A stretch of 64,000 nt of DNA, from NCBI GenBank assembly GCA_025782575.1, contig JALGYY010000035.1:340670-404669 (forward strand). The letters are read 5' to 3'. The notes below the pieces were generated by a model. That model was not told the DNA's origin, ran no database searches, and saw only the letters and a list, made by a program, of their open reading frames with translations. The DNA comes from a bacterium (GTDB taxonomy: Bacteria; Orphanbacterota; Orphanbacteria; Orphanbacterales; Orphanbacteraceae). Within the stretch, counting starts at the first letter, position 1, and each line of letters starts with the position of its first letter. Made by a program: the position numbers and the translations under genes. Shown here in pieces: positions 5,387 through 37,480 of the stretch.

Positions 5387-6343
5387 GTGGCAGGCTATCT
5401 GATTACGGGCGGAGCCGGTTTCATCGGGTCCCATCTGGCCCGCAGACTCGTTGAGCGGGGGGAATCGGTTCGGATTTTCGATAACTTCTCGAGCGGCAAG
5501 AGAGAAAACCTGGCTGACATTGAGAGTGCGGTTGAAGTGGTGGAGGCGGATCTTCGCGATCTGGACGCCGTCATGGAGGCCACGCGGGGAGTGGACTATA
5601 TCCTGCATCAGGCTGCCCTTGCTTCTGTTCCCCGATCGATCGCCGACCCCGTATCCACCAACGCCGTCAACGTGGGGGGGACCCTTCATGTGCTCATGGC
5701 CGCCAAAGAGCACTGCGTGAAGCGGATCGTCTTCGCATCTTCATCGTCAGTTTACGGCGATCAGGATCCGGCGGCGGCCAAACGAGAGGACATGCGGCCC
5801 AACCCACTATCTCCCTACGCCGTATCCAAACATGTGGGGGAGCAGTACGGCCACGTCTTTCACAAGCTCCATGATCTCCCCTTCGTAGCGATCCGATACT
5901 TCAATGTTTTCGGACCCTATCAGGACGAAGATTCCGACTACGCCGCGGTCATTCCGATTTTCTCCCGCTGTCTTCTCACCGGCAAGCGGCCGACCGTGTT
6001 CGGTGACGGCAAGCACACCCGTGACTTTACTTACATTTCCAACGTGGTCGACGCAAACATGCTCGCCATGGAGCGTGAGGAAGCGATCGGGCATACGATC
6101 AACGTGGCGTGCAACGGAAGTTTTGATCTGAATTACCTGATCCAGCGCCTGAACCTGGCGTACGGAACAGACCTTGAGCCGATCTATGCCGAGCCGAGAG
6201 CCGGCGATGTCAAGCACTCGCTCGCTGATATCAGCCGTGCCCGCGAGCTGCTCGGATACGATCCGGCCGTCGGCTTTGAGGACGGCCTGGAGGAGTCCGC
6301 GCGGTGGTACGAAAAGAAACTGGCAGCCACACAATCTCCATGA
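5387..6343 (+). CDS. NAD-dependent sugar epimerase (WbpP/TviC-like UDP-GlcNAc(A) 4-epimerase)
   Basis: TGGAGFIGSHL Rossmann motif and YxxxK (YAVSKH). GTG start 11 nt after GGGAGGG. Paired with the dehydrogenase as in wbpO/wbpP. Confidence 0.8.
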   Translation: MAGYLITGGAGFIGSHLARRLVERGESVRIFDNFSSGKRENLADIESAVEVVEADLRDLDAVMEATRGVDYILHQAALASVPRSIADPVSTNAVNVGGTLHVLMAAKEHCVKRIVFASSSSVYGDQDPAAAKREDMRPNPLSPYAVSKHVGEQYGHVFHKLHDLPFVAIRYFNVFGPYQDEDSDYAAVIPIFSRCLLTGKRPTVFGDGKHTRDFTYISNVVDANMLAMEREEAIGHTINVACNGSFDLNYLIQRLNLAYGTDLEPIYAEPRAGDVKHSLADISRARELLGYDPAVGFEDGLEESARWYEKKLAATQSP

Positions 6344-26478: not shown

Positions 26479-27411
26479 TTACTCCCTCCCGGAAGCAGGC
26501 TGCCAGTTCTCTATTATTTTTCGAACGATATCCGTCCCTACCCTTTCCTGGCTCTCTCTCGTACTTGCCCCGATATGAGGGGTCATAATCACTCCGGGGG
26601 CGCGCCGAAGCGCCGACTCCCCGAGCGGTTCTTCCGCGAAGACGTCGAAAGCCGCCCCGGCAAGATGGCCCGATTCCAGAGCCCGGGCTACGGCAGCCTC
26701 GTCAACGATTCCGCCTCGCGCACAATCGACCAGATAGGAGCCGACCTTCATGCGCTGGAGCTCGCCGGCGCCGATGAGTCCCCTCGTCCCAGCCAGTAAC
26801 GGCACATGAACCGTAAGCATGTCACAGGACTCGAGCAGTTTCCCGAACTCGACTTTCCGGCACTGATTCTCCAGCCCTTTGCCCGGCTTCACCGGGTAGG
26901 CGTCATGCCAGATGACATCCATTCCGAGCGCGAGCGCCCGTTCCGCTACCAGACGACCGATGCTACCGAATCCGAGTATACCCAGAGTCTTACCGAAGAC
27001 TTCGCCACCTGTCAGATTCTTTTTTTCCCAGAGCTCTTCTTTCATCGTACGGTCCGCCTCAGGGAGACGGCGGGCGAGCGCAAGCAAGAAGAGAATCACA
27101 AGTTCCGCAACCGCAATGGCGCTCGCTCCCGGCGTATTGACTACCTGGATACCGCGACTCTTCGCTGCCTCCAGGTCAATGCTGTCCAGGCCGACGCCGC
27201 CGCGGCCGATGATGCGAAGCCGACTGGCTGCTTCGATCCGATCCGCCGTCATCTTCGTCCGGCTTCTGACCAGGATCGCATCGATCCGCGGAAGATGATC
27301 GAACAGCTCTGACTCGTTCCAGCTCGTCCCGTCCAGCGCGGTCCACCCCGCATGCTCGAATGCATCGAACACGGACTGGGGGAACCCGTCGGCGATTGCT
27401 ACGATCGGCAC
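26479..27411 (-). CDS. D-isomer-specific 2-hydroxyacid dehydrogenase (phosphoglycerate dehydrogenase-like)
   Basis: GxGxxG NAD-binding motif (GILGFGSIGRLVA) and catalytic R/E/H region (CARGGIVDE...HIGAST). GTG start. Confidence 0.8.
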   Translation of the reverse strand: MPIVAIADGFPQSVFDAFEHAGWTALDGTSWNESELFDHLPRIDAILVRSRTKMTADRIEAASRLRIIGRGGVGLDSIDLEAAKSRGIQVVNTPGASAIAVAELVILFLLALARRLPEADRTMKEELWEKKNLTGGEVFGKTLGILGFGSIGRLVAERALALGMDVIWHDAYPVKPGKGLENQCRKVEFGKLLESCDMLTVHVPLLAGTRGLIGAGELQRMKVGSYLVDCARGGIVDEAAVARALESGHLAGAAFDVFAEEPLGESALRRAPGVIMTPHIGASTRESQERVGTDIVRKIIENWQPASGRE

Positions 27412-27450
27412 GGCGATGCTTCCCTTCCCCTGTCCGATCCCGCCCGGTGA

Positions 27451-28968
27451 TTACTCATCGGTTTTCCCGAACATCTCTTCCTGTACCGGTCGATCACAGC
27501 TCTCTTCGCTCATGTCCTTACCGTCGAACGTGAGAATGACGCACTTTCCATCTCTCAAAGTACGGAGACGCACCGGCCTTCTCCAGAATCGATGGACACT
27601 TCGAAGCGTCGCGCCCGCGTGTCCGGCATGGAGATCCAATCCTTCATGCCGATGGGCGAGCAGCAGTTCACCACGATTGTCGAAGTTCGCGTCTTCAACG
27701 AAGATGAACGGCCTTCCCATGTTGGTCAGCGAGAAGAGGAGCTGCTTCTTGACCGCCTCAAAATCCCTGGATTGGATCTCGTGCTGGCCCTTCTTTTCGT
27801 CAAAGGCAAAAACGAAAAGCTTGTGCTCCCGGCAGAACTCCTCGGTCAAAAACGTATCGATAAACGTAACGTCGTTATGAATCTTTCGTACTTCAAATAT
27901 TTTCTCGAGGCCGAGACCGAGATCGCGATTCCATTCACGTTTCTCAGTCAGGTTGTCGCAAGCCTCATACTCCTGCCCGAACCGGCCTCGATTCCACCGA
28001 TACTCGATGTCCCGAAACAGGTCAAGACCCATCTTATAAGGGTTCAGACGCCCCGGCTGGGTTGCCACAGTCCCCGAATGGTGGTCGGCGTAGTCGATCA
28101 ACTCCGAATCCTCAAGGCAATACTCGGTCATGATTTTGGAATGCCAGAACGTAGCCCACCCTTCATTCATGATCTTGGTCTGCCCCTGAGGAGCGAAGTA
28201 GTAACTCTCCTCACGAATCATCGAGAGGATGTCCTGCTCCCAATCGCGCAGGGGTGCGTACTGGATCAGGAAGAGGAGAATATCGCGAACCGGTTCGGCG
28301 GGAATTCTGCCGTTGCTTTGTTCCTTCTCCTTTTTCAGTCTCTCCCTCTGGGAGGCGAGAAACTCTTCGGGATTGATGAACGGGTCCATATAGTCTTTGG
28401 CTGCCAGCCGGGGAGGCTCGATCCCGTCAGCAGTTGTCTCGTCTGCTGTAATTGCCCGGTTCGGGAAAAACGCGGAGTGAGGATCAATCAGATCCTCGAT
28501 GGAATGACAGGCATCGAGAAACGCCTCGACTTCATCCTGGCCGTTCTGATCGGAGTACCGCTGCACACGTGTACTGTGATTGGCCATCTCATCGAGCATG
28601 CGACGGTTGGTCTTTGAGAACCAATAGTTATTCTTGAAGAAGTCGCTGTGCCCATACACGTGAGCCATGACCATCTTCTGATCGAGGGTGTTGTTGACGT
28701 CGAGCAGGTAGGCGTAACAGGGATCGTTGTTGATTACGAGTTCGTAGATCTTCTGGAGCCCGTAGCGGTACCCCTTCGACATCTGCTCGTATTCCATTCC
28801 GTATCGCCAGTGAGGATAGCGGGAGGGAAAGCCGCCGAAACTCGCAATCTCGTTCATCAACTCATAGTCGACCATCTCGAAGACAGTGTCGAAAAAGTCG
28901 AGTCCCACTGATCGGGCAACCGCCTCTACGTGTTCCCGGATACGGACAAGTTCCGCCGGAAGGCTCAT
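27451..28968 (-). CDS. SpoVR/YcgB family protein
   Basis: 505 aa with conserved SpoVR N- and C-terminal halves. GAGGGAGA RBS. Confidence 0.85.
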   Translation of the reverse strand: MSLPAELVRIREHVEAVARSVGLDFFDTVFEMVDYELMNEIASFGGFPSRYPHWRYGMEYEQMSKGYRYGLQKIYELVINNDPCYAYLLDVNNTLDQKMVMAHVYGHSDFFKNNYWFSKTNRRMLDEMANHSTRVQRYSDQNGQDEVEAFLDACHSIEDLIDPHSAFFPNRAITADETTADGIEPPRLAAKDYMDPFINPEEFLASQRERLKKEKEQSNGRIPAEPVRDILLFLIQYAPLRDWEQDILSMIREESYYFAPQGQTKIMNEGWATFWHSKIMTEYCLEDSELIDYADHHSGTVATQPGRLNPYKMGLDLFRDIEYRWNRGRFGQEYEACDNLTEKREWNRDLGLGLEKIFEVRKIHNDVTFIDTFLTEEFCREHKLFVFAFDEKKGQHEIQSRDFEAVKKQLLFSLTNMGRPFIFVEDANFDNRGELLLAHRHEGLDLHAGHAGATLRSVHRFWRRPVRLRTLRDGKCVILTFDGKDMSEESCDRPVQEEMFGKTDE

Positions 28969-28995
28969 CGATATTCTCCCTCGGCTTCTCGTCGG

Positions 28996-30075
28996 CTAGC
29001 GACCGCTTTTGAGAAATTCCTTGATGGATTGATAGATCTCCTCTTTCGACGAGATCTCGGACAAAACGAGTTTCGGTTCTTCTTCAACCTTCTCCCTCAG
29101 GTCCTTCACGAACTGACCTGTACCGTAGAGGCTCTTCACCTGGCCGTAGGAAAATTGATTAGCCGCGGGAATCAGCTTCTTCTTCAGAAGATCGATGGCG
29201 AGATCCGTGTCGCCCCCACCCCAGTTGTCACCATCGGAAAAGTGAAACGGGTAGATATTCCACTCCGAGACGGGATAATCCCGCTTGATCATGGCTTGAC
29301 ACAGCTCATAGGCGGACGAGATCTTGGTTCCACCACTTTCTCTCGTGTGATAGAAAGTCTCACGGTCCACCTCGCGCGCCACGGCATCGTGAATGATGTA
29401 ACGGGTCTCGATGTTCTTGTATTGCGATCGGAGCCACGTATCGATCCAGAACGACTCGAGCCGCACGATTTCTTTCTGTTCGTCCCCCATCGACCCTGAC
29501 ACATCCATCATGTAGATGACGGCGGCATTCGACTCGGGTTCCTCGACCGTCTTCCACGATCGATAACGACGGTCCTCGCGAATCGGCACGATGACCGGAT
29601 TGTCTTTATCGTAAGAGCCCGACGCGATCTGACGCTTGAGAGCCGCTGCATAAGTTCGCTTAAACTGTCTCAGTGATTCGGGGCCGGTCTTGCGGATCGA
29701 AGTGTACCTGTCCCTGACATTCTCGATCTCCATCTTGCCCCGGGGTTCGATATTGGGAAGCTCGAGTTCCTCCCCCATGATCTTGGCGAGTTCATCGAGT
29801 GAAACCTCCACTTCGAGTATGTGCTGACCCTCGGCATCTCCGGCCTCCGGCGTCACGGCCTCGCCCTCTTCCCCATCTCCCTGGCCGACCCCCCCGGATC
29901 CATTGTCACCGAAGTGGAATCGAGGTATTTCAATCTGCGGAATCGGAATGGAAACGAACTTCTTGCCTTGGCGGCCGATCAGTTCGCCCTTGGTGATATA
30001 TTGCTTGAGGTGCTTCTTGATACTTCCACGCACGATCTTCTTGAATCGCGTGTGGTCACGTCGAATTCTCAGCAC
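28996..30075 (-). CDS. YeaH/DUF444 (UPF0229) family protein
   Basis: vWA-like core ([14 protein letters not shown]) with a YeaH-like N-terminus. GTG start. Confidence 0.85.
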
Positions 30076-30113
30076 GCCACTCGCCCCCCTCGATCAAACG
30101 AAGCGCGCATCGA

Positions 30114-32150
30114 TCAGCTGCTCTCCTTGATGTCACCTCTCGCGAAGATGGAGGCCACGAAATTGAGCACGTCCGTTGCGCTTGCGTCGTTGTATCCGAA
30201 ATTCTCGATGAGCCGACCCTTGACCACATCAATTTTCTCCTGGGCTTCCTGATCGACCACACTCGATACCAGGCTCGTCAGCTTGATCGTGTCTTTCTGG
30301 TCCTCGAAGAGCTTCAGCTCGAGCGCTTTCTGGAGGCGGGGATTGGCTCGGTAGTCGAACCGTTTCCCATCTACCGCCAGGGCACCGATATAGTTCATGA
30401 TCTCACGGCGAAAGTCGTCTTTCCGGCTCTCGGGAATATCGATCTTTTCCTCAATCGAACGCATCAGGCGCTCATCCGGCTCTTCACTCTGGCCCGTGTA
30501 CTTGTTGCGGACCTTTTCTTTCTGCGTGTACGCTTTTACATTGTCGATGTAGTTGGCACAGAGCTTCATGATCGAGTCCTCGTCCGCCGAAATTGCCCTC
30601 TGCACCTCATTCTTAACAATGTCTTCGTATTCTTCCCTCGCCACAGAAAGGAGCTCGGTGAAGCGTTTTCGCTGTTCCTCCGAACTGATCAATGTGTGAT
30701 GGCGGAGTCCGCTCGCAAGCTCATTCAGAACCATGAACGGGTTCAGATAGTCCTCATCCAGGTCGCTCACCAGGGCGTTCGAGATCTTGTCCTGTATATA
30801 GCGCGGCGAGATTCCCTCCATTCCCTCGTGCACGACTTCCTTCCGCAGCTCTTTAACGTTCTCTTCCGTAAAGCCAGGGAGCGACTTGCCGTCGTACAGC
30901 TTCAGTTTCTGTATGAGGGAAAGCTGCCCCTTCTTAGGATCTTCGAGCCGCGTCAACACGGCCCACATCGCCGCGATTTCGATCGTGTGCGGTGCAATAT
31001 GTTTCGCGATCTTCTTCTCGTTATAGTCCTTGTTGTAGATTCGAATTTCATCGCGAAGCTTGGTAATATAGGGGATATCGATTTTCACAGTCCTGTCACG
31101 AAGAGCCTCCATGTACTCGTTCTTCTGAAGTTTCTTGAACTCGGGCTCGTTCGTGTGGCCGATGATCACCTCGTCAATATCGGTCTGTGGGAATTTCTTC
31201 GGCTTGATCTTGTGTTCCTGGGAGGCTCCGAGCAGATCGTACAGGAATGCGACATCGAGTTTCAAAACCTCGACGAACTCGACAATACCCCGGTTCGCAA
31301 CGTTGAACTCGCCGTCGAAATTGAATGCCCGCGGGTCGGAATCGGATCCGTATTCCGCGATCTTCCTGTAATTGATATCCCCGGTGAGCTCCGTGGAATC
31401 CTGGTTTTTTTCGTCCTTTGGTTGGAACGTGCCGATGCCGACTCTGTCTTTTTCGGAAATCAGGAGACGCTTGACGACGATGTGATCGAGTACCCGGGAC
31501 CAGTCACCTTTGTACTCATCCAAGTATCGGGCGTACTGAAAGCGGCAGAAAGGATTCAAATCCCCGGCGATCACAATAGGATAGGGGACCCGCTCTGCGA
31601 GCTCTTCGATCAGCCCCGCCCGAGCCTCATCAGGCAGAAGACGGATGGGATCTTCATGCATGGGGGACCATTCGATCTGGCCGGTTTCGGGGTCCTTCCA
31701 GCCATATGTATACAGAGCCCCCTCAGGTATTCGTGAATAGGCTTCCAGTCCATGCTTCAGCAAGCGGACAATTGTCGACTTCGAACTACCCACCGGCCCG
31801 TGAAGGAGAAGAATTCGCTTCTCAGGCCCATAGCCGAGCGCGGCCGCTTTAAATATCTTAATGAGCTTCATGAGGGGGAGATCGAGCCCGAAGACAGCGT
31901 CAGCCCCACGGTTCATGGGATCACTGAAGAAATTATAGTGGATGATATTCTTTTTGCTGTCCTGGTACTCCTTGGTTCCGTAGGAGAGCACCATGTCATA
32001 GACACGTTGATAGGCAGTGCGGAGAACGCTCGGATTGTCATAGACAATGTTCAGATAATCTACGAAGTTTCCGGTCCAGTTGAGTTGCTCGTACCGATCA
32101 ACACTCTGGGCCGCTCGAGCCTTCTGAATTAAATCCTGGCCTCTGGACAT
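30114..32150 (-). CDS. prkA: PrkA-family serine protein kinase (YeaG-like AAA+ kinase)
   Basis: 678 aa with Walker A ([13 protein letters not shown]) and PrkA C-terminal domains. AGGAGGGG RBS. Confidence 0.9.
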
Positions 32151-32343
32151 AGTATATTGCCCCTCCTGACATGCGAGACGTTGGAGACTACTCTACTCCA
32201 TTTGTATCCGCCTATCGGCGTTTCGCGCACAATTCTTTAACATTCCGCTACATTTCACTGTTTCTTATCCTCCATTCCTCCCTTTCACCCCCATCCAGTG
32301 ATCCCGGTTCGGGTTAACCGAATAGATGCTTCGATTGCAGCCT

Positions 32344-32378
32344 AAAAAAAAGGGGTGAAGCCTCATGGCTCCACCCCT
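32344..32378 (-). terminator. rho-independent terminator
   Basis: Minus-strand hairpin GGGGTGGAGCC-ATGA-GGCTTCACCCC followed by TTTTTTTT, directly after the stop of the Cys-rich protein gene. Confidence 0.65.
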
Positions 32379-32406
32379 TGAATCTAAAACTTGAAGTATA
32401 CGCAGA

Positions 32407-32952
32407 TCAGACTTTCGGAGGACAACCCGCCGTCTTGCACAGGACTTCGCAACCGTTTCCGCCGCTCGTGCAATCCTTGAGGAGATCCGCATACACGGCG
32501 TTACCACTCGTGCCGGCAAACTCCAGGTAACAGCCGTCTTTTCCCTTGAAAACCTCGGCTTTGAGATCGTGATCGACAGCAAGCTTGGTGGCAACTGTCT
32601 CCATCCAGCCATGGATGCTGTCGGAATCTCCGAGGACATAGATGCGGAGACCGTTCTCGGTCTGCACGGCTTTCATGGTACATGCCTGCTCACTTCCGTA
32701 ATTGCACTTGGCAGCGGCGGCGCTCTTCGTGCCGCATAACGCTCCTGCCTTCTTAATGGAACCACAGGAAGCACTCGCCTTGAGGCCCTGGGCCTTTGCG
32801 GAACAGCAGCCGGACGCGCTCTTCTTCGCGCTGCAGGAGCTGGACTTGCCGTCGCTCTGATAGAAGACGCCGGAATCGGCCGTCGCGAAGGCCAGGCCTA
32901 GGACCGCCGGGACGGCGAGTAGAAGCAGGATGCGCTTGCCGGGAAATTTCAT
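32407..32952 (-). CDS. secreted cysteine-rich protein, hypothetical
   Basis: Signal peptide, then an S/A/K/C-rich segment (SSSCSAKKSASGCCSAKAQGLKASASCGSIKKAGALCGTKSAAAAKC), a globular C-terminal domain and a terminal CKTAGCPPKV. AGGAGA RBS. Confidence 0.5.
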   Translation of the reverse strand: MKFPGKRILLLLAVPAVLGLAFATADSGVFYQSDGKSSSCSAKKSASGCCSAKAQGLKASASCGSIKKAGALCGTKSAAAAKCNYGSEQACTMKAVQTENGLRIYVLGDSDSIHGWMETVATKLAVDHDLKAEVFKGKDGCYLEFAGTSGNAVYADLLKDCTSGGNGCEVLCKTAGCPPKV

Positions 32953-33054
32953 GTAATTTATCTCCTGTCGGTTTAAGGGGTTACAGTTTTTCGATCAAGG
33001 TTATTATGCAATCAGAGGCGGAGAGTGACCTATCTCCCTGCCAATTGTCAAGTT

Positions 33055-34092
33055 TCATCGGTGGCCGCGACTCTTTGTGCCGCCTGACCTCCCGCCTCCT
33101 CCGGATCGGCCGGGCGCTTTGCTCCCGCCGGCGTGTCCCGATCGGGATGTTCGGCCCGACCTCGAGATCTTGGAGCCGCTGCTGCCCCGGCTTGACGACG
33201 GCCGATCGACTCGCGCGCTGCTCTTCCCACCTGTCCGGCGAGTCCGACCTACCTGTGCGGACTCTCGTGTTCCTCTGGACCGGCTCCCCCGTTGAACTTT
33301 CGTTCCGGACGAGCGTGTGCTCCGTTCCGTCACATAACGATGCGATGAGGCTCGGGATCTTGTGGTTCTGAACTTCGACCGGCTCGAACTTGTGCGGCTC
33401 GCCGCCGCCACGGTTCGGGTCCTCCGATCCTTGCCATAGGAAGAACGGTAGGCCGTCTCGTAAGTGCGGCCGCCTCCGGGCGTGTTGTAGTGGTGATCAT
33501 TATGGTGACCGTACTGGTATCCATAGTGATGCCCCCACTGTTGGCCGTAATACCAGCTGACATAGAGCCCGGTGGAGTAGTACGGATAGTATGGGTAATA
33601 TGAGGAATAGTAATACGAATAAGGGTCATGATGCCACGAAGCGTAATACCATGGATCGTACCAGAACCAGTCCCAGTACCAGGGATCGTTCGCCCAGGTG
33701 TTTCGGGGGACCGCGTAGGGCACAAGGGCGATATCGACTGAGCTCGGACTGTCATACCGGTTGTAGCCGATCTCCGCAGGAATTTCGCTCTTCTCTTCTT
33801 CCAGCTCGATATCGGACGGAGGAGTTTCCCTCAGGCCGTTATATTCCGATGAGCGGATCATCGCTTCGATTACGCTCTCAGGAACTCCTTCCTCTTTCAG
33901 TTCCAGAATGTCGTCCGCTGTCAGTTCGAACGATTTGCCGCTTGCTTCGATCTGTGCAATGACGACACGTTCACCGACTCCCGCCTCGAGCAGCAGGATC
34001 ACTTCATCGATATCGAAGTCGACAGCCTGAACATCGGGAGAGATCAGAAAGAACAGAGGGAGAATCAAGATCCAGGGCAAGCGCCTATACAT
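33055..34092 (-). CDS. secreted low-complexity protein: tandem helical repeats + Trp/Tyr/His-rich segment + Arg/Ser/Gly-rich basic tail
   Basis: Signal peptide MYRRLPWILILPLFFLISPDVQA after an AGGAG RBS. About 70 aa are W/Y/H/P/D/S only (PWYWDWFWYDPWYYASWHHDPYSYYYSSYYPYY). About 150 aa are R/S/G/T-rich. Confidence 0.6.
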   Translation of the reverse strand: MYRRLPWILILPLFFLISPDVQAVDFDIDEVILLLEAGVGERVVIAQIEASGKSFELTADDILELKEEGVPESVIEAMIRSSEYNGLRETPPSDIELEEEKSEIPAEIGYNRYDSPSSVDIALVPYAVPRNTWANDPWYWDWFWYDPWYYASWHHDPYSYYYSSYYPYYPYYSTGLYVSWYYGQQWGHHYGYQYGHHNDHHYNTPGGGRTYETAYRSSYGKDRRTRTVAAASRTSSSRSKFRTTRSRASSHRYVTERSTRSSGTKVQRGSRSRGTRESAQVGRTRRTGGKSSARVDRPSSSRGSSGSKISRSGRTSRSGHAGGSKAPGRSGGGGRSGGTKSRGHR

Positions 34093-34282
34093 GACCGGAC
34101 TCCTGGAAGGGGTAAATGCAATCGTCAAGATGACCATACCTCAGAACCTGTGAAATTGCAAGGGCTTCTGGGGACTGACACCCTCGGGACGCCTCCCCTC
34201 CCTCGCCCGGGCACTCTTCGAATCCGGGCACTCCGGACACTCCGAGTTTCGGCGGGCGCCCCTCTTTATTGAAACACGGAAA

Positions 34283-34312
34283 GGCGCCGGAAGGATCCCT
34301 CCCGGCGCCAGA
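34283..34312 (-). terminator. putative terminator hairpin (GGCGCCGG-loop-CCGGCGCC)
   Basis: Perfect 8-bp stem directly downstream of the 34340 gene. The T-tract is weak. Confidence 0.3.
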
Positions 34313-34339: not shown

Positions 34340-34588
34340 TTATCCCCTGCGGTACATCCAGTGCCCCGGCACCCAGCGATATCCGATCCGGGGCCCGCAC
34401 CAGGTCCAGTCTCCGGCTACCCAGGTCGCCTGTGCCCTGCAGAGGGCCGGCCGTGGAGCCTGCTTGACCACCACCACTGTCCTGATCGGTCGGTGGGAAT
34501 ATCGCCGGCCGCGATGGGCATCCGCCACGGTAGTGGTCAGAAGGAGTGCGGTCAGCGCTACAAGCCCGATTATCGTATTGCGTATCAT
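34340..34588 (-). CDS. small secreted protein with two WxxGxW motifs
   Basis: Signal peptide MIRNTIIGLVALTALLLTTTVADA after a GGAGGAGG RBS. WVAGDW and WVPGHW match the WXXGXW repeat family pattern. Confidence 0.55.
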   Translation of the reverse strand: MIRNTIIGLVALTALLLTTTVADAHRGRRYSHRPIRTVVVVKQAPRPALCRAQATWVAGDWTWCGPRIGYRWVPGHWMYRRG

Positions 34589-34626
34589 CTGGTCCTCCTC
34601 CATTTCAATTCGGTCTCTATTGCACA

Positions 34627-34968
34627 CTAGTAGTGAATCGCCCAGGCGTTACCGTCATAGTCGGCGTCGTCATTCATCAACGTCTCCTCCGTAAGGACGC
34701 CGACGGCCACGTGCATGCGACCGGGAATGTCTGAAACGGCATAGATCCCCGAGTATGTTCCGTCACCGTTGTTCGTCATCTCGATCCCCCTGTGGTTCAC
34801 ATGCAGAAACGCGAGATAGGCGGACTCGCCGGTTTCGACCGTTACTTCGATCTCGGCTTCATCGGTGAGCTCCGTCGCGGCCGGTGCCAGCGAACTGCTC
34901 GAGCCGTTGCAACCGGTGGCGAGAAAAACCGCTGCGGCGAGAAGAAGTGCTTGGAATGTCCAGCGCAT
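34627..34968 (-). CDS. lipoprotein, hypothetical
   Basis: Lipobox FLATGC after signal peptide MRWTFQALLLAAAV. Confidence 0.55.
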   Translation of the reverse strand: MRWTFQALLLAAAVFLATGCNGSSSSLAPAATELTDEAEIEVTVETGESAYLAFLHVNHRGIEMTNNGDGTYSGIYAVSDIPGRMHVAVGVLTEETLMNDDADYDGNAWAIHY

Positions 34969-35226
34969 ATTGTTACCTCCTCTTGCGTTGTTGTGAGAAC
35001 TGACTCTCAGAGGGAGCAACGGATGTGCCATGAAGAAAGAACTGCATAAGCTACTGGGATCGAATTAATTAGGAAGGTGGGGCACGAGAAGAGTCTCAGG
35101 AGAGATGAACCGATTCGAGCGGGTGGCTTTGTCAGGTGTTCGAAGTGGAACGAAAAACCGGCCCGATACCCCTCTGGGCGATCCGGACCGGTTCTCGAGT
35201 TTTTCGGACGTCTCCCAGGCGGTAGC

Positions 35227-35397
35227 CTAAAGGTCCTGCGGCTTCAGCGTCTTCCGGTTGTTCGCAACGGCGCGCTTCTCGGCCTTCGCGATCAAGGAGC
35301 GTACTTCCCTGTCCAGAGCATCGTAGAAATCGCTCGAGACGTTGCAGTTCTCGGCTGCGGCTTTCGTCCGGCTCTTCGAAATGATTAGATCTGCCAT
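35227..35397 (-). CDS. bacterial histone-fold protein (HBb/DUF1931-like singlet histone, 56 aa)
   Basis: MADLIISKSRTKAAAENCNVSSDFYDALDREVRSLIAKAEKRAVANNRKTLKPQDL. The architecture and the C-terminal RKTxxxxDL match archaeal HMf (RKTIKAEDI) and the Bdellovibrio HBb histone. GGGAGGG RBS 7 nt upstream. Confidence 0.6.
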   Translation of the reverse strand: MADLIISKSRTKAAAENCNVSSDFYDALDREVRSLIAKAEKRAVANNRKTLKPQDL

Positions 35398-35500: not shown

Positions 35501-37480
35501 TCAAGGTCGAGAGGCCGTCTCGCGGTATTCCTTGGCCCGGGGTGCGGAGACGGTTCGCAGGAGAGTGATCCCGGCAGCACCCAGGAGCAGGGCGCCCACG
35601 ACTGTCTGAGTCGAGACTTCATCGATAAGAGCCAACCCTTCGAAACGGCCACCCAGCAGCACAGTTGCGTTGTACAGGATGTGAAGCACCATGGGCGGTA
35701 CGATCGATCGACTTCTGTAGGCGAGAACGCCCGCAACGATTCCCATGATCGCCGTCGGCAGGAGCCGGTAGATGCTCAGGTGGAACAGGCCGAAGAAAAG
35801 ACCGCCCACCAGAATCGCCTTCCAGGGCTCCATCCCTCTCTCATGACGTCCCAGGATCAGCCCGCGAAAAAAGAGCTCCTCACAGATCCCGGGACTCACT
35901 GCAATTGCAAACAGGAGCATGGGGAGGCCCCCACCACCGATATCCAGAAGCCCCTCCATCTCCTTGAAGAGCTGCTCGGGTACGGGAAGGAAACGGCTTT
36001 GCAGGTGGAACATGAGGTTTGCGGCAAACAGTGTGGGAAGCGCCAGCAGGGCAGCCGCCACTACATGACCGACGGCCGGAAGCCTGAGACGAAACGTGTC
36101 AAGGTACGGAAGCTGATAGTACCGGGCGAACAGGAGTGACGGAATCAGAAGCAGTCCCCAAAGCGTCAGAAGCAGGCCGCTCAGCAGATCGTAGGCCTGA
36201 ATTGTGCTTCCGACGTAATAGAGAAGCAGCAGTTGTATGAAATAGAAAACATTGACTTCCCTGACCAGGGACCGATCGGCGCCCCGAGCCGGAGAGATTG
36301 AAGGAGCTGGGCCAAGTACAACCGCTTCACTCTCGAGATAGGAAACCGCTTTTCGGAGAACGATCACCGCGCAAATCGCATTCGAAAGAAAGACGGCGAT
36401 CAGGGGGAGGACGGGGAAGTTTCCGAGCAGCGCCTCCCGGACGGCGAGCGAAACGTTGGCGATCGGAGCGAACGCCGCCACGGAATCAAGACGGATTCCT
36501 GGCAGAAGCGCAATAGCGGCAGGCACGATCGAAAGAAGCATAATCGGCATGAGGAGGGTCTGTGCTTCCCGATAAGTCCTTGCATGACTTGCCGTCAGAA
36601 CAAGTACCGCGCTCAGAAAGATCGCCAGCGGCAGTGTAACGAGAACGACCACGAGTCCTGTCCCGGGCGAAAGCTCGAGAGAGGCCCGCGCCGCCGCCCC
36701 TCCCGTCAGTCCGAGTTTGATGGCGACGAAGTTCGAGACGAGAAAGAGGATGACCGAAGTGATCGCCATGAGAACGACAGCGAGGAACTTTCCCGCCACG
36801 ACCGACCTCCTGTCAGCGAGCGAAGTGAGCAACGTCTCGATCGTTCGTCGTTCCTTCTCACCGCTGAAGAGATCAACCGCTATGACCGAGGCGCCGTTCA
36901 TGAGAATGAGAACGAGAAAAATCGGGAAGATACGGCCGAATTTACTCCCCGCCATTCGCTCTTCTGAAGCGATGTTGGTCTCCTCCACATCGACCACAAG
37001 ATCCAGGTCGGCCGGAGCGCCGATTTCCTGGAGCCGTTCCCGGCGGAGTTCCCCCCTCCAGGAATCCACATGGTCCCGTATACGCTCCCGGGCCAGGCGG
37101 GACAGTTCCTTCGACCCATCGTAGAGAATCGAGATCTCCGTGGATGAATTCCCCTTTGTCGGGAATGTCGCAGGCAAGATGACGGACGCCTGTAATTCTT
37201 CCCGCCGAATGGACTGCTCGAAATTACTGGTCTCGCGGATTTCGATCAGATGATCTTCTTCGATTCTCTTTCGGAAACTGCGATCGGATCCGTCGATCGC
37301 CACCCAGACCGTTTCGTCTTCAAGGCCCTTTTCCCGCATCTCTTCGAGTCGTTGCTGGCCGAACAGGAGAACGGGAAAGAACGCGATGGGAAAAACGATC
37401 GTGGCGATAATACTCCGCCGATCACGCAGGATGTCGATCGCTTCCTTGCGGAATACGATGCCGGTGTCGCGGAGATTCAC
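35501..37480 (-). CDS. ABC-2 family permease fused to a C-terminal CPBP (CAAX/Abi) intramembrane metalloprotease domain
   Basis: N-terminal roughly 400 aa is an ABC-2 permease (large extracytoplasmic loop after TM1). C-terminal EELFFRG...FGLFHL...HILYN are CPBP motifs 1-3. ATGA overlap with the ATPase gene. Confidence 0.75.
   Translation of the reverse strand: MNLRDTGIVFRKEAIDILRDRRSIIATIVFPIAFFPVLLFGQQRLEEMREKGLEDETVWVAIDGSDRSFRKRIEEDHLIEIRETSNFEQSIRREELQASVILPATFPTKGNSSTEISILYDGSKELSRLARERIRDHVDSWRGELRRERLQEIGAPADLDLVVDVEETNIASEERMAGSKFGRIFPIFLVLILMNGASVIAVDLFSGEKERRTIETLLTSLADRRSVVAGKFLAVVLMAITSVILFLVSNFVAIKLGLTGGAAARASLELSPGTGLVVVLVTLPLAIFLSAVLVLTASHARTYREAQTLLMPIMLLSIVPAAIALLPGIRLDSVAAFAPIANVSLAVREALLGNFPVLPLIAVFLSNAICAVIVLRKAVSYLESEAVVLGPAPSISPARGADRSLVREVNVFYFIQLLLLYYVGSTIQAYDLLSGLLLTLWGLLLIPSLLFARYYQLPYLDTFRLRLPAVGHVVAAALLALPTLFAANLMFHLQSRFLPVPEQLFKEMEGLLDIGGGGLPMLLFAIAVSPGICEELFFRGLILGRHERGMEPWKAILVGGLFFGLFHLSIYRLLPTAIMGIVAGVLAYRSRSIVPPMVLHILYNATVLLGGRFEGLALIDEVSTQTVVGALLLGAAGITLLRTVSAPRAKEYRETASRP

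Follow-up and report, generated by a model that had tools for sequence, protein, structure and literature searches.

The window analysed here is a stretch of 64,000 nucleotides (contig JALGYY010000035.1 of assembly GCA_025782575.1, positions 340,670 to 404,669 of the forward strand) that carries on its minus strand, at 33055-34092, a genuine protein-coding gene. Its product is almost certainly a real exported protein of an uncurated three-block family. The open reading frame (ORF), found where a first-pass annotation had placed it together with the four peptide strings quoted there, extends over 33055-34137 (360 residues); from an inner ATG at 34092 it specifies 345 residues, beginning MYRRLPWILILPLFF, and the stop codon at 33055-33057. 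We took this inner ATG as the start in preference to the one at 34137 because a Shine-Dalgarno-like AGGAG (34100-34104, minus strand) lies 7 nt upstream of it, because homologues start with M-(K/R)-(R/K) followed by a hydrophobic segment, and because 34137 falls inside a promoter-like -10 element. Full-length homologues (27-48% identity) display the same architecture, with the parts in the same order.

In tblastn searches, the target frame matched six related loci with E values of 1e-25 to 1e-46, and the N-terminal 110 residues alone, which are not of low complexity, still did so with 1e-22 to 1e-31 under SEG masking. Three overlapping ORFs (33330-33755, 33591-33962 and, on the plus strand, 32796-33371) gave no match with E<0.03 in the same loci. 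The first-pass annotation, which had named conservation of the frame in relatives as a point to check, had regarded the first two of these as opposite-strand shadows; shadows they are, but only 33591-33962 is on the plus strand, whereas 33330-33755 is read from the same strand as the target in another frame. The idea that the gene is a chance open frame in GC-rich DNA, or itself the shadow of a gene in another frame, could draw on such overlapping ORFs (60-190 residues), but is effectively refuted, as the target frame is kept end to end in relatives at 33-48% identity while the other frames are not, the N-terminal domain is predicted to fold confidently, and a Shine-Dalgarno-like sequence and a conserved promoter-like site are present.

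The protein consists of five parts, namely a signal peptide, a duplicated helical-hairpin domain, an acidic linker, a W/Y/H block and an R/S/G/T tail, the mature form comprising about 322 residues. The signal peptide, already proposed in the first-pass annotation, is of the Sec type without a lipobox Cys (residues 1-23, 34024-34092, minus strand as for all parts; MYRRLPWILILPLFFLISPDVQA, followed by V); by inspection, it has a basic n-region, a hydrophobic h-region with a 10-residue Kyte-Doolittle maximum of 3.27, and V-Q-A at -3 to -1. An equivalent hydrophobic N-terminus was found in 37/37 family members, and the protein is thus predicted to be Sec-exported. Next follows an acidic head domain of four helices (residues 24-86, 33835-34023), composed of two homologous helix-turn-helix halves with cores at residues 29-48 (DEVILLLEAGVGERVVIAQI, 34008-33949) and 60-79 (DDILELKEEGVPESVIEAMI, 33915-33856), in which the hairpin turn has the motif aGV(S/G)(D/E)xVI. 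These cores had been described as two tandem amphipathic repeats; the duplication is real (hhalign probability 97.9%, E 4e-13 for half 1 against half 2), but the copies are not separate, being the halves of one four-helix domain. AlphaFold2 places the helices at residues 28-36, 41-51, 59-67 and 72-86 with predicted local distance difference test (pLDDT) values of 83-90 in the full-length model, and the head modelled alone reaches 90.8. Everything past residue 87 has a pLDDT below 50, such that about 260 residues are predicted to be disordered.

The head is succeeded by an acidic, E-rich linker (residues 87-135, 33688-33834) ending in vPaxLGxxRYxxPxxVxvxLVPYaVPR, in which E99, E100, P105, G109, R112, Y113, V124, P125, V128 and P129 are invariant in alignments of close relatives. 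The aromatic block (residues 136-205, 33478-33687), which has the length of about 70 residues noted at first pass, starts with three runs of 8-9 residues delimited by D-P (WYWDWFWY, WYYASWHH and YSYYYSSYY), reads PWYWDWFWYDPWYY...PYY at residues 137-172 (33684-33577), and continues with Y/H segments separated by P and G up to a Y/H/G-rich end, HHYGYQYGHHNDHHY (residues 188-202, 33531-33487). It contains hardly any aliphatic residues, has a net charge of about -3, and gives a Wimley-White interfacial sum of -22 kcal/mol, its best 19-mer (PWYWDWFWYDPWYYASWHH) accounting for -12 kcal/mol. Finally, the R/S/G/T tail (residues 206-345, 33058-33477) is polycationic with a net charge of about +31, ends in ...GGTKSRGHR, and is predicted to be disordered.

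The composition of both C-terminal parts lies far outside what chance would give in the window, from which we took all 229 stop-to-stop ORFs of at least 100 residues in all six frames for comparison. Residues 140-205 comprise 20 Y, 8 H and 7 W out of 66, and the maximal W+Y+H fraction over 66 residues (0.56) was the top value among the 229 ORFs (mean 0.092, standard deviation 0.048; second 0.23). Likewise, the tail comprises 32 S, 30 R, 24 G and 15 T, and its R+S+G+T fraction over 140 residues (0.72) ranked first (mean 0.35, standard deviation 0.077); the R/S/G/T-rich composition described at first pass therefore held, the length being 140 rather than about 150 residues. The accompanying likeness to RS domains did not hold beyond composition: 19 RS and SR dipeptides were counted, where 5000 shuffles gave 13.7±3.0 (P=0.06), alternating runs reach 4 residues at most, and the protein has no RNA-recognition motif (RRM). 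RGG motifs are lacking in the tail, which contains 9 RG/GR dipeptides within its 140 residues. At the DNA level, Tandem Repeats Finder reported as sole repeat a 25-nt GTACCA run (TGG-TAC codons) in the W/Y region, the gene has no direct repeats of 14 nt or longer, and the tail is free of DNA tandem repeats; as repeats are confined to that short run, the low complexity does not stem from DNA repeat expansion.

We defined the family by a signal peptide, a duplicated GV(S/G) helical-hairpin head, an acidic linker, an aromatic block of at least 60 residues with at least 38% W/Y/F/H and few aliphatics, and a strongly basic tail of at least 90 residues. At least 37 proteins, that is, the window protein and 36 cluster representatives, show the whole design, and in 36/37 the signal peptide is directly followed by the head; in the remaining member, P0010 (a cluster of 25 members), another N-terminus precedes the aromatic block and tail. 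By the same definition, the block of the window protein measures 86 residues with 48% W/Y/F/H and 3 aliphatics, within a family range of 60-103 residues. The charge layout is common to 37/37 members: net charge is -8 to -22 (mean -14) for head plus linker, averages -1 for the near-neutral block, and is +12 to +50 (mean +28) for the tail, the corresponding values of the window protein being -19, -3 and +31. Within the tail, R mostly exceeds K, yet one member is K-rich, which makes charge the conserved property; composition and charge of the tail are conserved, its sequence is not. Judged from these patterns, the order acidic-aromatic-basic is under selection despite rapid sequence drift.

In the aromatic block, in contrast to the tail, positional conservation is clear within subfamilies. 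D136, P137, W138, D141, W144 and Y150, as well as H189 and H200, are invariant in the seven closest relatives, and subfamily B shares FGYYYPHWPGYxWSYYYDPFxWPS... with 11 invariant aromatic, Pro or Gly positions. Between subfamilies, the positional signal is modest (z of 2-6; 2.0 for the window protein against subfamily B), while the subfamily-A block profile scored 38.5 bits against P0010 (z of about 10 over segment-wise shuffles). Among the 37 members, blocks contain anywhere between 0 and 14 His residues, several having two or fewer, and several relatives contain longer His runs such as GHHGHHGHHY or HHYPHHHHPHYPHH. In addition, many shorter relatives, often lipoproteins, combine the head and the aromatic block with a short basic end, for instance ...SFGRHR or ...GGRGGRR. 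Long and short relatives have in common a basic C-terminus of the form G/S-(R/K/H)-(R/K/H)-R/K (SRGHR, SFGRHR, GGRGGRR, GGKKKSR), a motif that could act as a recognition or sorting signal. A word-indexed search with the aromatic-block profile returned 793 candidates, none significant, and no N-terminal heads further to that of P0010. Ten distant members looked up in their clusters were metagenome proteins with no protein name among them, and a literature search on characteristic peptide strings of the family (DPWYW, YMINTGK and others) yielded no paper.

The statement that nothing similar is a standard annotated family proved true for curated resources, but the protein is no orphan, being one of the at least 37 proteins described above and sharing its head with a much larger set. 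Scans with Pfam and NCBIfam gave nothing but a chance match to Gcd10p (E 0.057), the head model compared against the PDB with Foldseek had no relative (best E 2.5), and searches of PDB sequences with the head and full-length profiles produced chance matches only (E of at least 0.015). By contrast, an exhaustive hidden Markov model search with the head profile, which matches family members at E values of 1e-20 to 1e-28, recovered 13,522 cluster representatives at E<=1e-3, of which 1,853 also passed E<=1e-10. Copies of the head range from 1 to 26 per protein. In the top matches it co-occurs with glycine-zipper, YiaD/OmpA-like lipoprotein modules, Trypsin_2 plus TPR, CsgG (fused to the head in two unrelated proteins), PEGA and PsbP, and it often lies behind a lipoprotein signal; these partners and lipoprotein signals indicate an envelope context. 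Thus, we are dealing with an uncurated family of unusual, strictly conserved physicochemical design, and with a very widespread head domain that is equally uncurated. Given 13,522 clusters, a confident predicted fold and its position outside Pfam, NCBIfam and the PDB, the head module is a clear candidate for curation and structure determination.

Single head hairpins of relatives do attract sub-threshold matches to DUF7626, HTH_68 and DUF433, Pfam families likewise without known function, with which they share a short helix-Gly-turn-helix pattern. Against the DUF7626 gathering threshold of 27 bits, relatives score 17-22 bits (22.4 for P0021), the window protein has no match at E<=10, and only the 26-repeat P0025 passes, with a summed 80.8 bits. 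As the matches span only about 25 residues, homology to these families is not established. P0025 itself is a giant of 2552 residues with about 26 copies of the helical-hairpin domain, and its summed weak matches also pass the thresholds of the unrelated SAM_DprA, T7-like_Y65 and Tfx, illustrating that an uncurated repeat can cause false annotations.

Upstream of the target gene we noted a putative promoter at 34133-34161 (minus strand), consisting of TTGCAA (34161-34156), a 17-nt spacer and TATGGT (34138-34133), the last of which contains the alternative ATG 34137. The pattern TTGCAA/TTGTCA-N17-TAnnnT is conserved in position in 5/6 aligned upstream regions of about 230 nt each; a simple promoter scan did not flag it because only 8/12 consensus positions match. 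Since sigma-54 activators flank the region, we also looked by eye for a sigma-54 promoter upstream of the target, and saw no GG-N10-GC at the conserved TTGCA. Further upstream, a stable hairpin with a 12-bp stem (34283-34309, minus strand) lies just 3' of the preceding small gene; its predicted RNA folds at -27.6 kcal/mol (z -4.6), 0/200 shuffles folding equally well, and the related loci have a hairpin at the equivalent place after the upstream gene. Likely, it serves as a terminator or insulator that gives the target its own transcription unit, although its T-tract is interrupted and a terminator function is therefore only suggested by its fold and position.

Directly downstream lie the gene of a Cys-rich secreted protein (32407-32952) and its strong intrinsic terminator (32379-32350, with a 13-pair stem and a T-run), both on the minus strand and together spanning 32350-32952. 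As no terminator-like site separates target and Cys-rich gene, the two may be co-transcribed, and the unit likely comprises its own promoter, the target, the Cys-rich gene and the terminator, apart from both the upstream ABC transporter genes and the prkA operon, to judge from these predicted signals. An Rfam scan of 31.5-36 kb gave nothing beyond a sub-threshold STnc390 match at 32341-32403, which coincides with the terminator hairpin. In the Cys-rich protein (181 residues), which is without a Pfam or NCBIfam match, an S/K/A/C-rich N-terminal half precedes a conserved C-terminal domain that ends in GCPPK(V/A). In L001, L004 and L006, three of the related loci, its homologues (25-38% identity) immediately follow the target-family gene, and in L034 a gene of 202 residues occupies this place as a candidate counterpart by position alone.

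Several small genes precede the target on the same strand. The nearest (34340-34627) encodes a small secreted protein with WxxGxW-type repeats (...ATWVAGDWTWCGPRIGYRWVPGHWMYRRG), which matched the BcpO lipoprotein model weakly (E 0.003, far under the cut-off); in L001 and L004, homologues with 43-53% identity immediately precede the target, L003 and L035 have no such gene, and L034 has in its place a gene of 80 residues, again a candidate counterpart by position alone. Next comes a lipoprotein of 134 residues (34627-35031); its last 75 residues share 53% identity with the C-terminal end of a 304-residue lipoprotein at the same position in L004, compared with which its N-terminal part is much shorter. 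A third gene (35227-35397), concealed within a longer ORF call of 169 residues, encodes a 56-residue protein (MADLIISKSRTK...RKTLKPQDL) that is 72-82% identical in L001, L003, L004 and L006, matches DUF1931 (histone-fold-like) weakly (E 0.006), and invariably follows the gene at 35501-37480. The latter specifies an ABC-2 permease fused to a C-terminal Rce1/CPBP (CAAX-type) intramembrane protease domain; the genes of an ABC ATPase and of a second ABC-2 permease come before it, an arrangement that is kept upstream of the target in six Eisenbacteria-type loci.

The closest loci belong to metagenome-assembled genomes (MAGs) labelled Candidatus Eisenbacteria (L003, L004, L006 and L007), with two further ones labelled Gemmatimonadetes. 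With the window they share a chromosomal backbone in the order sigma-54 activator, MGMT-like protein, ABC-2 permease, ABC ATPase, ABC-2+Rce1/CPBP fusion, 56-residue protein, optional lipoprotein, optional small WxxGxW protein and target, which is followed by an optional Cys-rich protein, then PrkA-YeaH-SpoVR and a 2-hydroxyacid dehydrogenase, and finally PilZ, a sigma-70 family factor, FliW and a TPR protein. Within this block the target is one of the fastest-evolving genes: between the window and L004 or L001, PrkA is 82-83% and the ABC ATPase 75-77% identical, the target only 35-40%. Rapid evolution is typical of disordered proteins. The Cys-rich gene together with prkA-yeaH(DUF444)-spoVR and the 2-hydroxyacid dehydrogenase (26479-32150 in the window) forms an indel of about 6 kb, present in the window, L001 and L004 and missing at the same backbone position in L003 (9000-9800) and L035 (4000-4800), while the sequence of L034 extends only to its start. 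A functional link between the target and PrkA-YeaH-SpoVR was considered and rejected, given the intervening terminator and the absence of the block in L003 and L035.

Distant members (L009, L010, L012 and 11 subfamily-B loci) have housekeeping neighbours (GT2, HAD/ACT, SDR, a ThiD-type kinase, MFS) and one subfamily-specific small gene. In subfamily B, a conserved gene of 131-133 residues lies immediately upstream of the family gene in 17 loci (54-100% identity), for example at 5442-5843 (+) of L028, where the two overlap by 4 nt, and also in L010, L011, L014-L016 and L018-L029. The encoded protein has an N-terminal membrane anchor, the motif ...WQYRPDKxKWxxLDESFALEGQ...FMETFGFLV... and a weak Kelch-like match, and is a likely partner of the family protein in that subfamily; the gene is absent from the window.

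What might such a protein do? Pfam and NCBIfam revealed no catalytic or curated domain in it, and we tentatively propose a non-enzymatic mechanism relying on multivalent aromatic and electrostatic contacts, whereby the protein would act in the cell envelope (periplasm or surface) as a physical “glue” or scaffold rather than as an enzyme. The aromatic block would provide dense pi-pi and cation-pi stickers, and its turn-delimited runs of 8-9 residues might form short beta-strands upon assembly. The +30 tail would bind polyanions such as anionic lipid or lipopolysaccharide head groups, peptidoglycan carboxylates, acidic polysaccharide or extracellular DNA, and could in addition engage the -19 head and linker of adjacent molecules. 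The outcome would be self-association, in the form of a gel, coacervate or fibrous layer, combined with adhesion, with the folded head supplying specificity as a common envelope docking module. Precedents for individual steps are at hand: Tyr-Arg cation-pi assembly is documented for FUS (PMC5927716), CsgF is a secreted bacterial protein that self-associates through aromatic residues (PMC10133297), and Sbp is a secreted basic, partly disordered protein that condenses with DNA (PMC12828985). The adhesive, amyloid, coacervate-forming or metal-binding roles suggested at first pass are plausible readings of the composition; of these, metal binding is disfavoured as a conserved function because the His content of the block varies so widely across the family.

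Several considerations weigh against the glue or scaffold proposal. Both this role and any localisation past predicted export are deduced from the amino acid sequence, and, with 75% of the chain lacking an AlphaFold2 structure, disorder cannot be distinguished from folding upon assembly. Furthermore, the block is about 50% aromatic, far denser than known condensate scaffolds, and RGG motifs are missing; an insoluble aggregate or a defined fold would be just as probable as a liquid phase. The long tail is dispensable for whatever head and block do jointly, since many lipoprotein relatives have a very short basic end. Lastly, no functional clue common to the subfamilies emerges from the neighbouring genes.

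It is unlikely, though by no means far-fetched, that the protein is instead a peripheral membrane tether, whose block would insert into the membrane interface (the outer face of the inner membrane or the inner leaflet of the outer membrane) and whose tail would clamp anionic head groups, the sole role being to hold the head at the membrane. W and Y beside basic residues are a classic composition of interfacial anchors, the calculated interfacial free energy of the block and of its best 19-mer is strongly favourable, and the same head is elsewhere joined to other anchors such as glycine-zipper/OmpA-like lipoprotein modules or lipoprotein signals. However, many relatives with a lipoprotein signal still keep the aromatic block, which is therefore not merely a substitute anchor; a 140-residue tail of +31 by far exceeds the needs of an anchor; and the conservation of individual positions in the block points to a particular structure or partner.

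We consider it improbable that the product is a cross-linked coat or matrix protein, in which the Tyr-rich and the Ser/Arg/Lys-rich regions would be di-tyrosine-linked or phosphorylated into a resistant layer. The abundance of Tyr in the block and of Ser and Arg in the tail would suit it, as would the Cys-rich secreted protein encoded directly downstream and maybe co-transcribed, the adjoining prkA-yeaH-spoVR, and the precedents among Bacillus spore-coat proteins, namely the S/K/R-rich, CotH-phosphorylated CotB and CotG (PMC7821199) and the Tyr-rich CotC and CotU. But neither a CotH-like kinase nor an oxidase or peroxidase was found among the 22 neighbouring ORFs scanned (20.9-44.3 kb), the tail is devoid of the tandem repeats of CotB/CotG, and the strong terminator separates the target/Cys-rich unit from prkA, the block of which is absent in L003 and L035. 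Besides, PrkA resides in the cytoplasm, where an exported protein would be out of its reach.

Periplasmic metal binding or buffering via the His/Tyr/Asp-rich segment HHYGYQYGHHNDHHY seems marginally less probable again. It would account for the 8 His of the block, the invariance of H189 and H200 in the closest relatives and the longer His runs of several others, and the downstream neighbour is Cys-rich; yet a His content of 0 to 14 is not a conserved family feature, and no metal transporter or regulator is found in the conserved neighbourhood.

Very improbable, finally, is a Trp/Arg-rich antimicrobial or toxin precursor, its cationic part kept neutralised by the anionic head until release, for which the ABC-2 and ABC-2/CPBP proteins encoded upstream would act in export, processing or immunity. 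In its favour, links to bacteriocin immunity are frequent among CPBP proteases, indolicidin and similar W/P/R-rich peptides act on membranes, and the transporter genes lie upstream of the target in all six Eisenbacteria-type loci that extend far enough (window, L001, L003, L004, L034 and L035). Yet this linkage sits in the conserved chromosomal backbone of one lineage and is absent in other subfamilies, which carry a different conserved neighbour as well as housekeeping genes; one to three genes and a hairpin stand between the transporter genes and the target, which has a promoter-like site of its own; and the gene is vertically conserved rather than patchy.

Returning to the envelope scaffold, a bolder and rather unlikely extension, offered here as speculation, would make the whole family extracytoplasmic sticker-block scaffolds, the bacterial counterpart of Tyr/Arg condensate and adhesive proteins. 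Its members would assemble by head-to-tail and cation-pi contacts into a periplasmic or surface layer of gel or fibres that organises the envelope of Eisenbacteria and other uncultured lineages, and the head, present in more than 13,000 clusters, would be an unrecognised, widespread envelope docking domain. If the mechanism we propose were true, the protein would represent a natural, genetically compact aromatic/cationic multivalent assembly outside the bacterial cytoplasm, of relevance to envelope and biofilm biology as well as to the design of protein adhesives and coacervates. Whichever mechanism applies, the fixed acidic/aromatic/basic order amid fast sequence drift offers a clear-cut example of selection acting on the physicochemical pattern of a disordered protein in bacteria.

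How does this design compare with known systems? FUS-type scaffolds (PMC5927716) likewise unite a Tyr-rich sticker region and a separate Arg-rich disordered region in one polypeptide, with composition prevailing over sequence; the target differs in being exported and bacterial, about 50% aromatic including W and H, equipped with an acidic folded head, and devoid of RGG or RRM. CsgF (PMC10133297) is, like the target, a secreted protein of the Gram-negative envelope and forms a Phe-dependent cell-surface condensate as a curli accessory, but it is small, lacks a polycationic tail and a W/Y block, and is unrelated in sequence. Nor does the protein resemble the curli or Fap amyloid systems, as Pfam detected no curlin or Fap repeats and the 22 neighbouring ORFs include no CsgG, CsgE/F or Fap genes. 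Sbp of Staphylococcus epidermidis (PMC12828985), secreted, highly basic and partly disordered, could serve as a model of how a +30 tail might organise a polyanionic matrix; in contrast to the target, it is a Gram-positive 16-kDa protein with neither homology, aromatic block nor acidic head. Among bacterial structural proteins outside the cytoplasm, the nearest precedent for long disordered regions rich in Ser and Arg/Lys is provided by CotB/CotG (PMC7821199), which differ by their tandem repeats and CotH polyphosphorylation, whereas the tail of the target is non-repeated, its lineage is a non-Firmicute MAG group, and no CotH-family kinase is encoded among the ORFs scanned at 20.9-44.3 kb.

With the RS domains of eukaryotic SR proteins, the tail shares a high R and S content only; significant RS/SR enrichment, RS runs and an RRM are missing, and the target is exported. 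Indolicidin and tritrpticin are Trp/Pro/Arg-rich, membrane-active peptides of 13 residues, which the target resembles locally in its W-P-W-rich next to Arg-rich sequence and its strong predicted interfacial partitioning, but here the aromatic part is a near-neutral block of 70 residues with Asp spacers, embedded in a conserved chromosomal protein of 345 residues. The target thus belongs to none of these known families, though it may work like the Tyr/Arg condensate scaffolds or the secreted basic matrix proteins.

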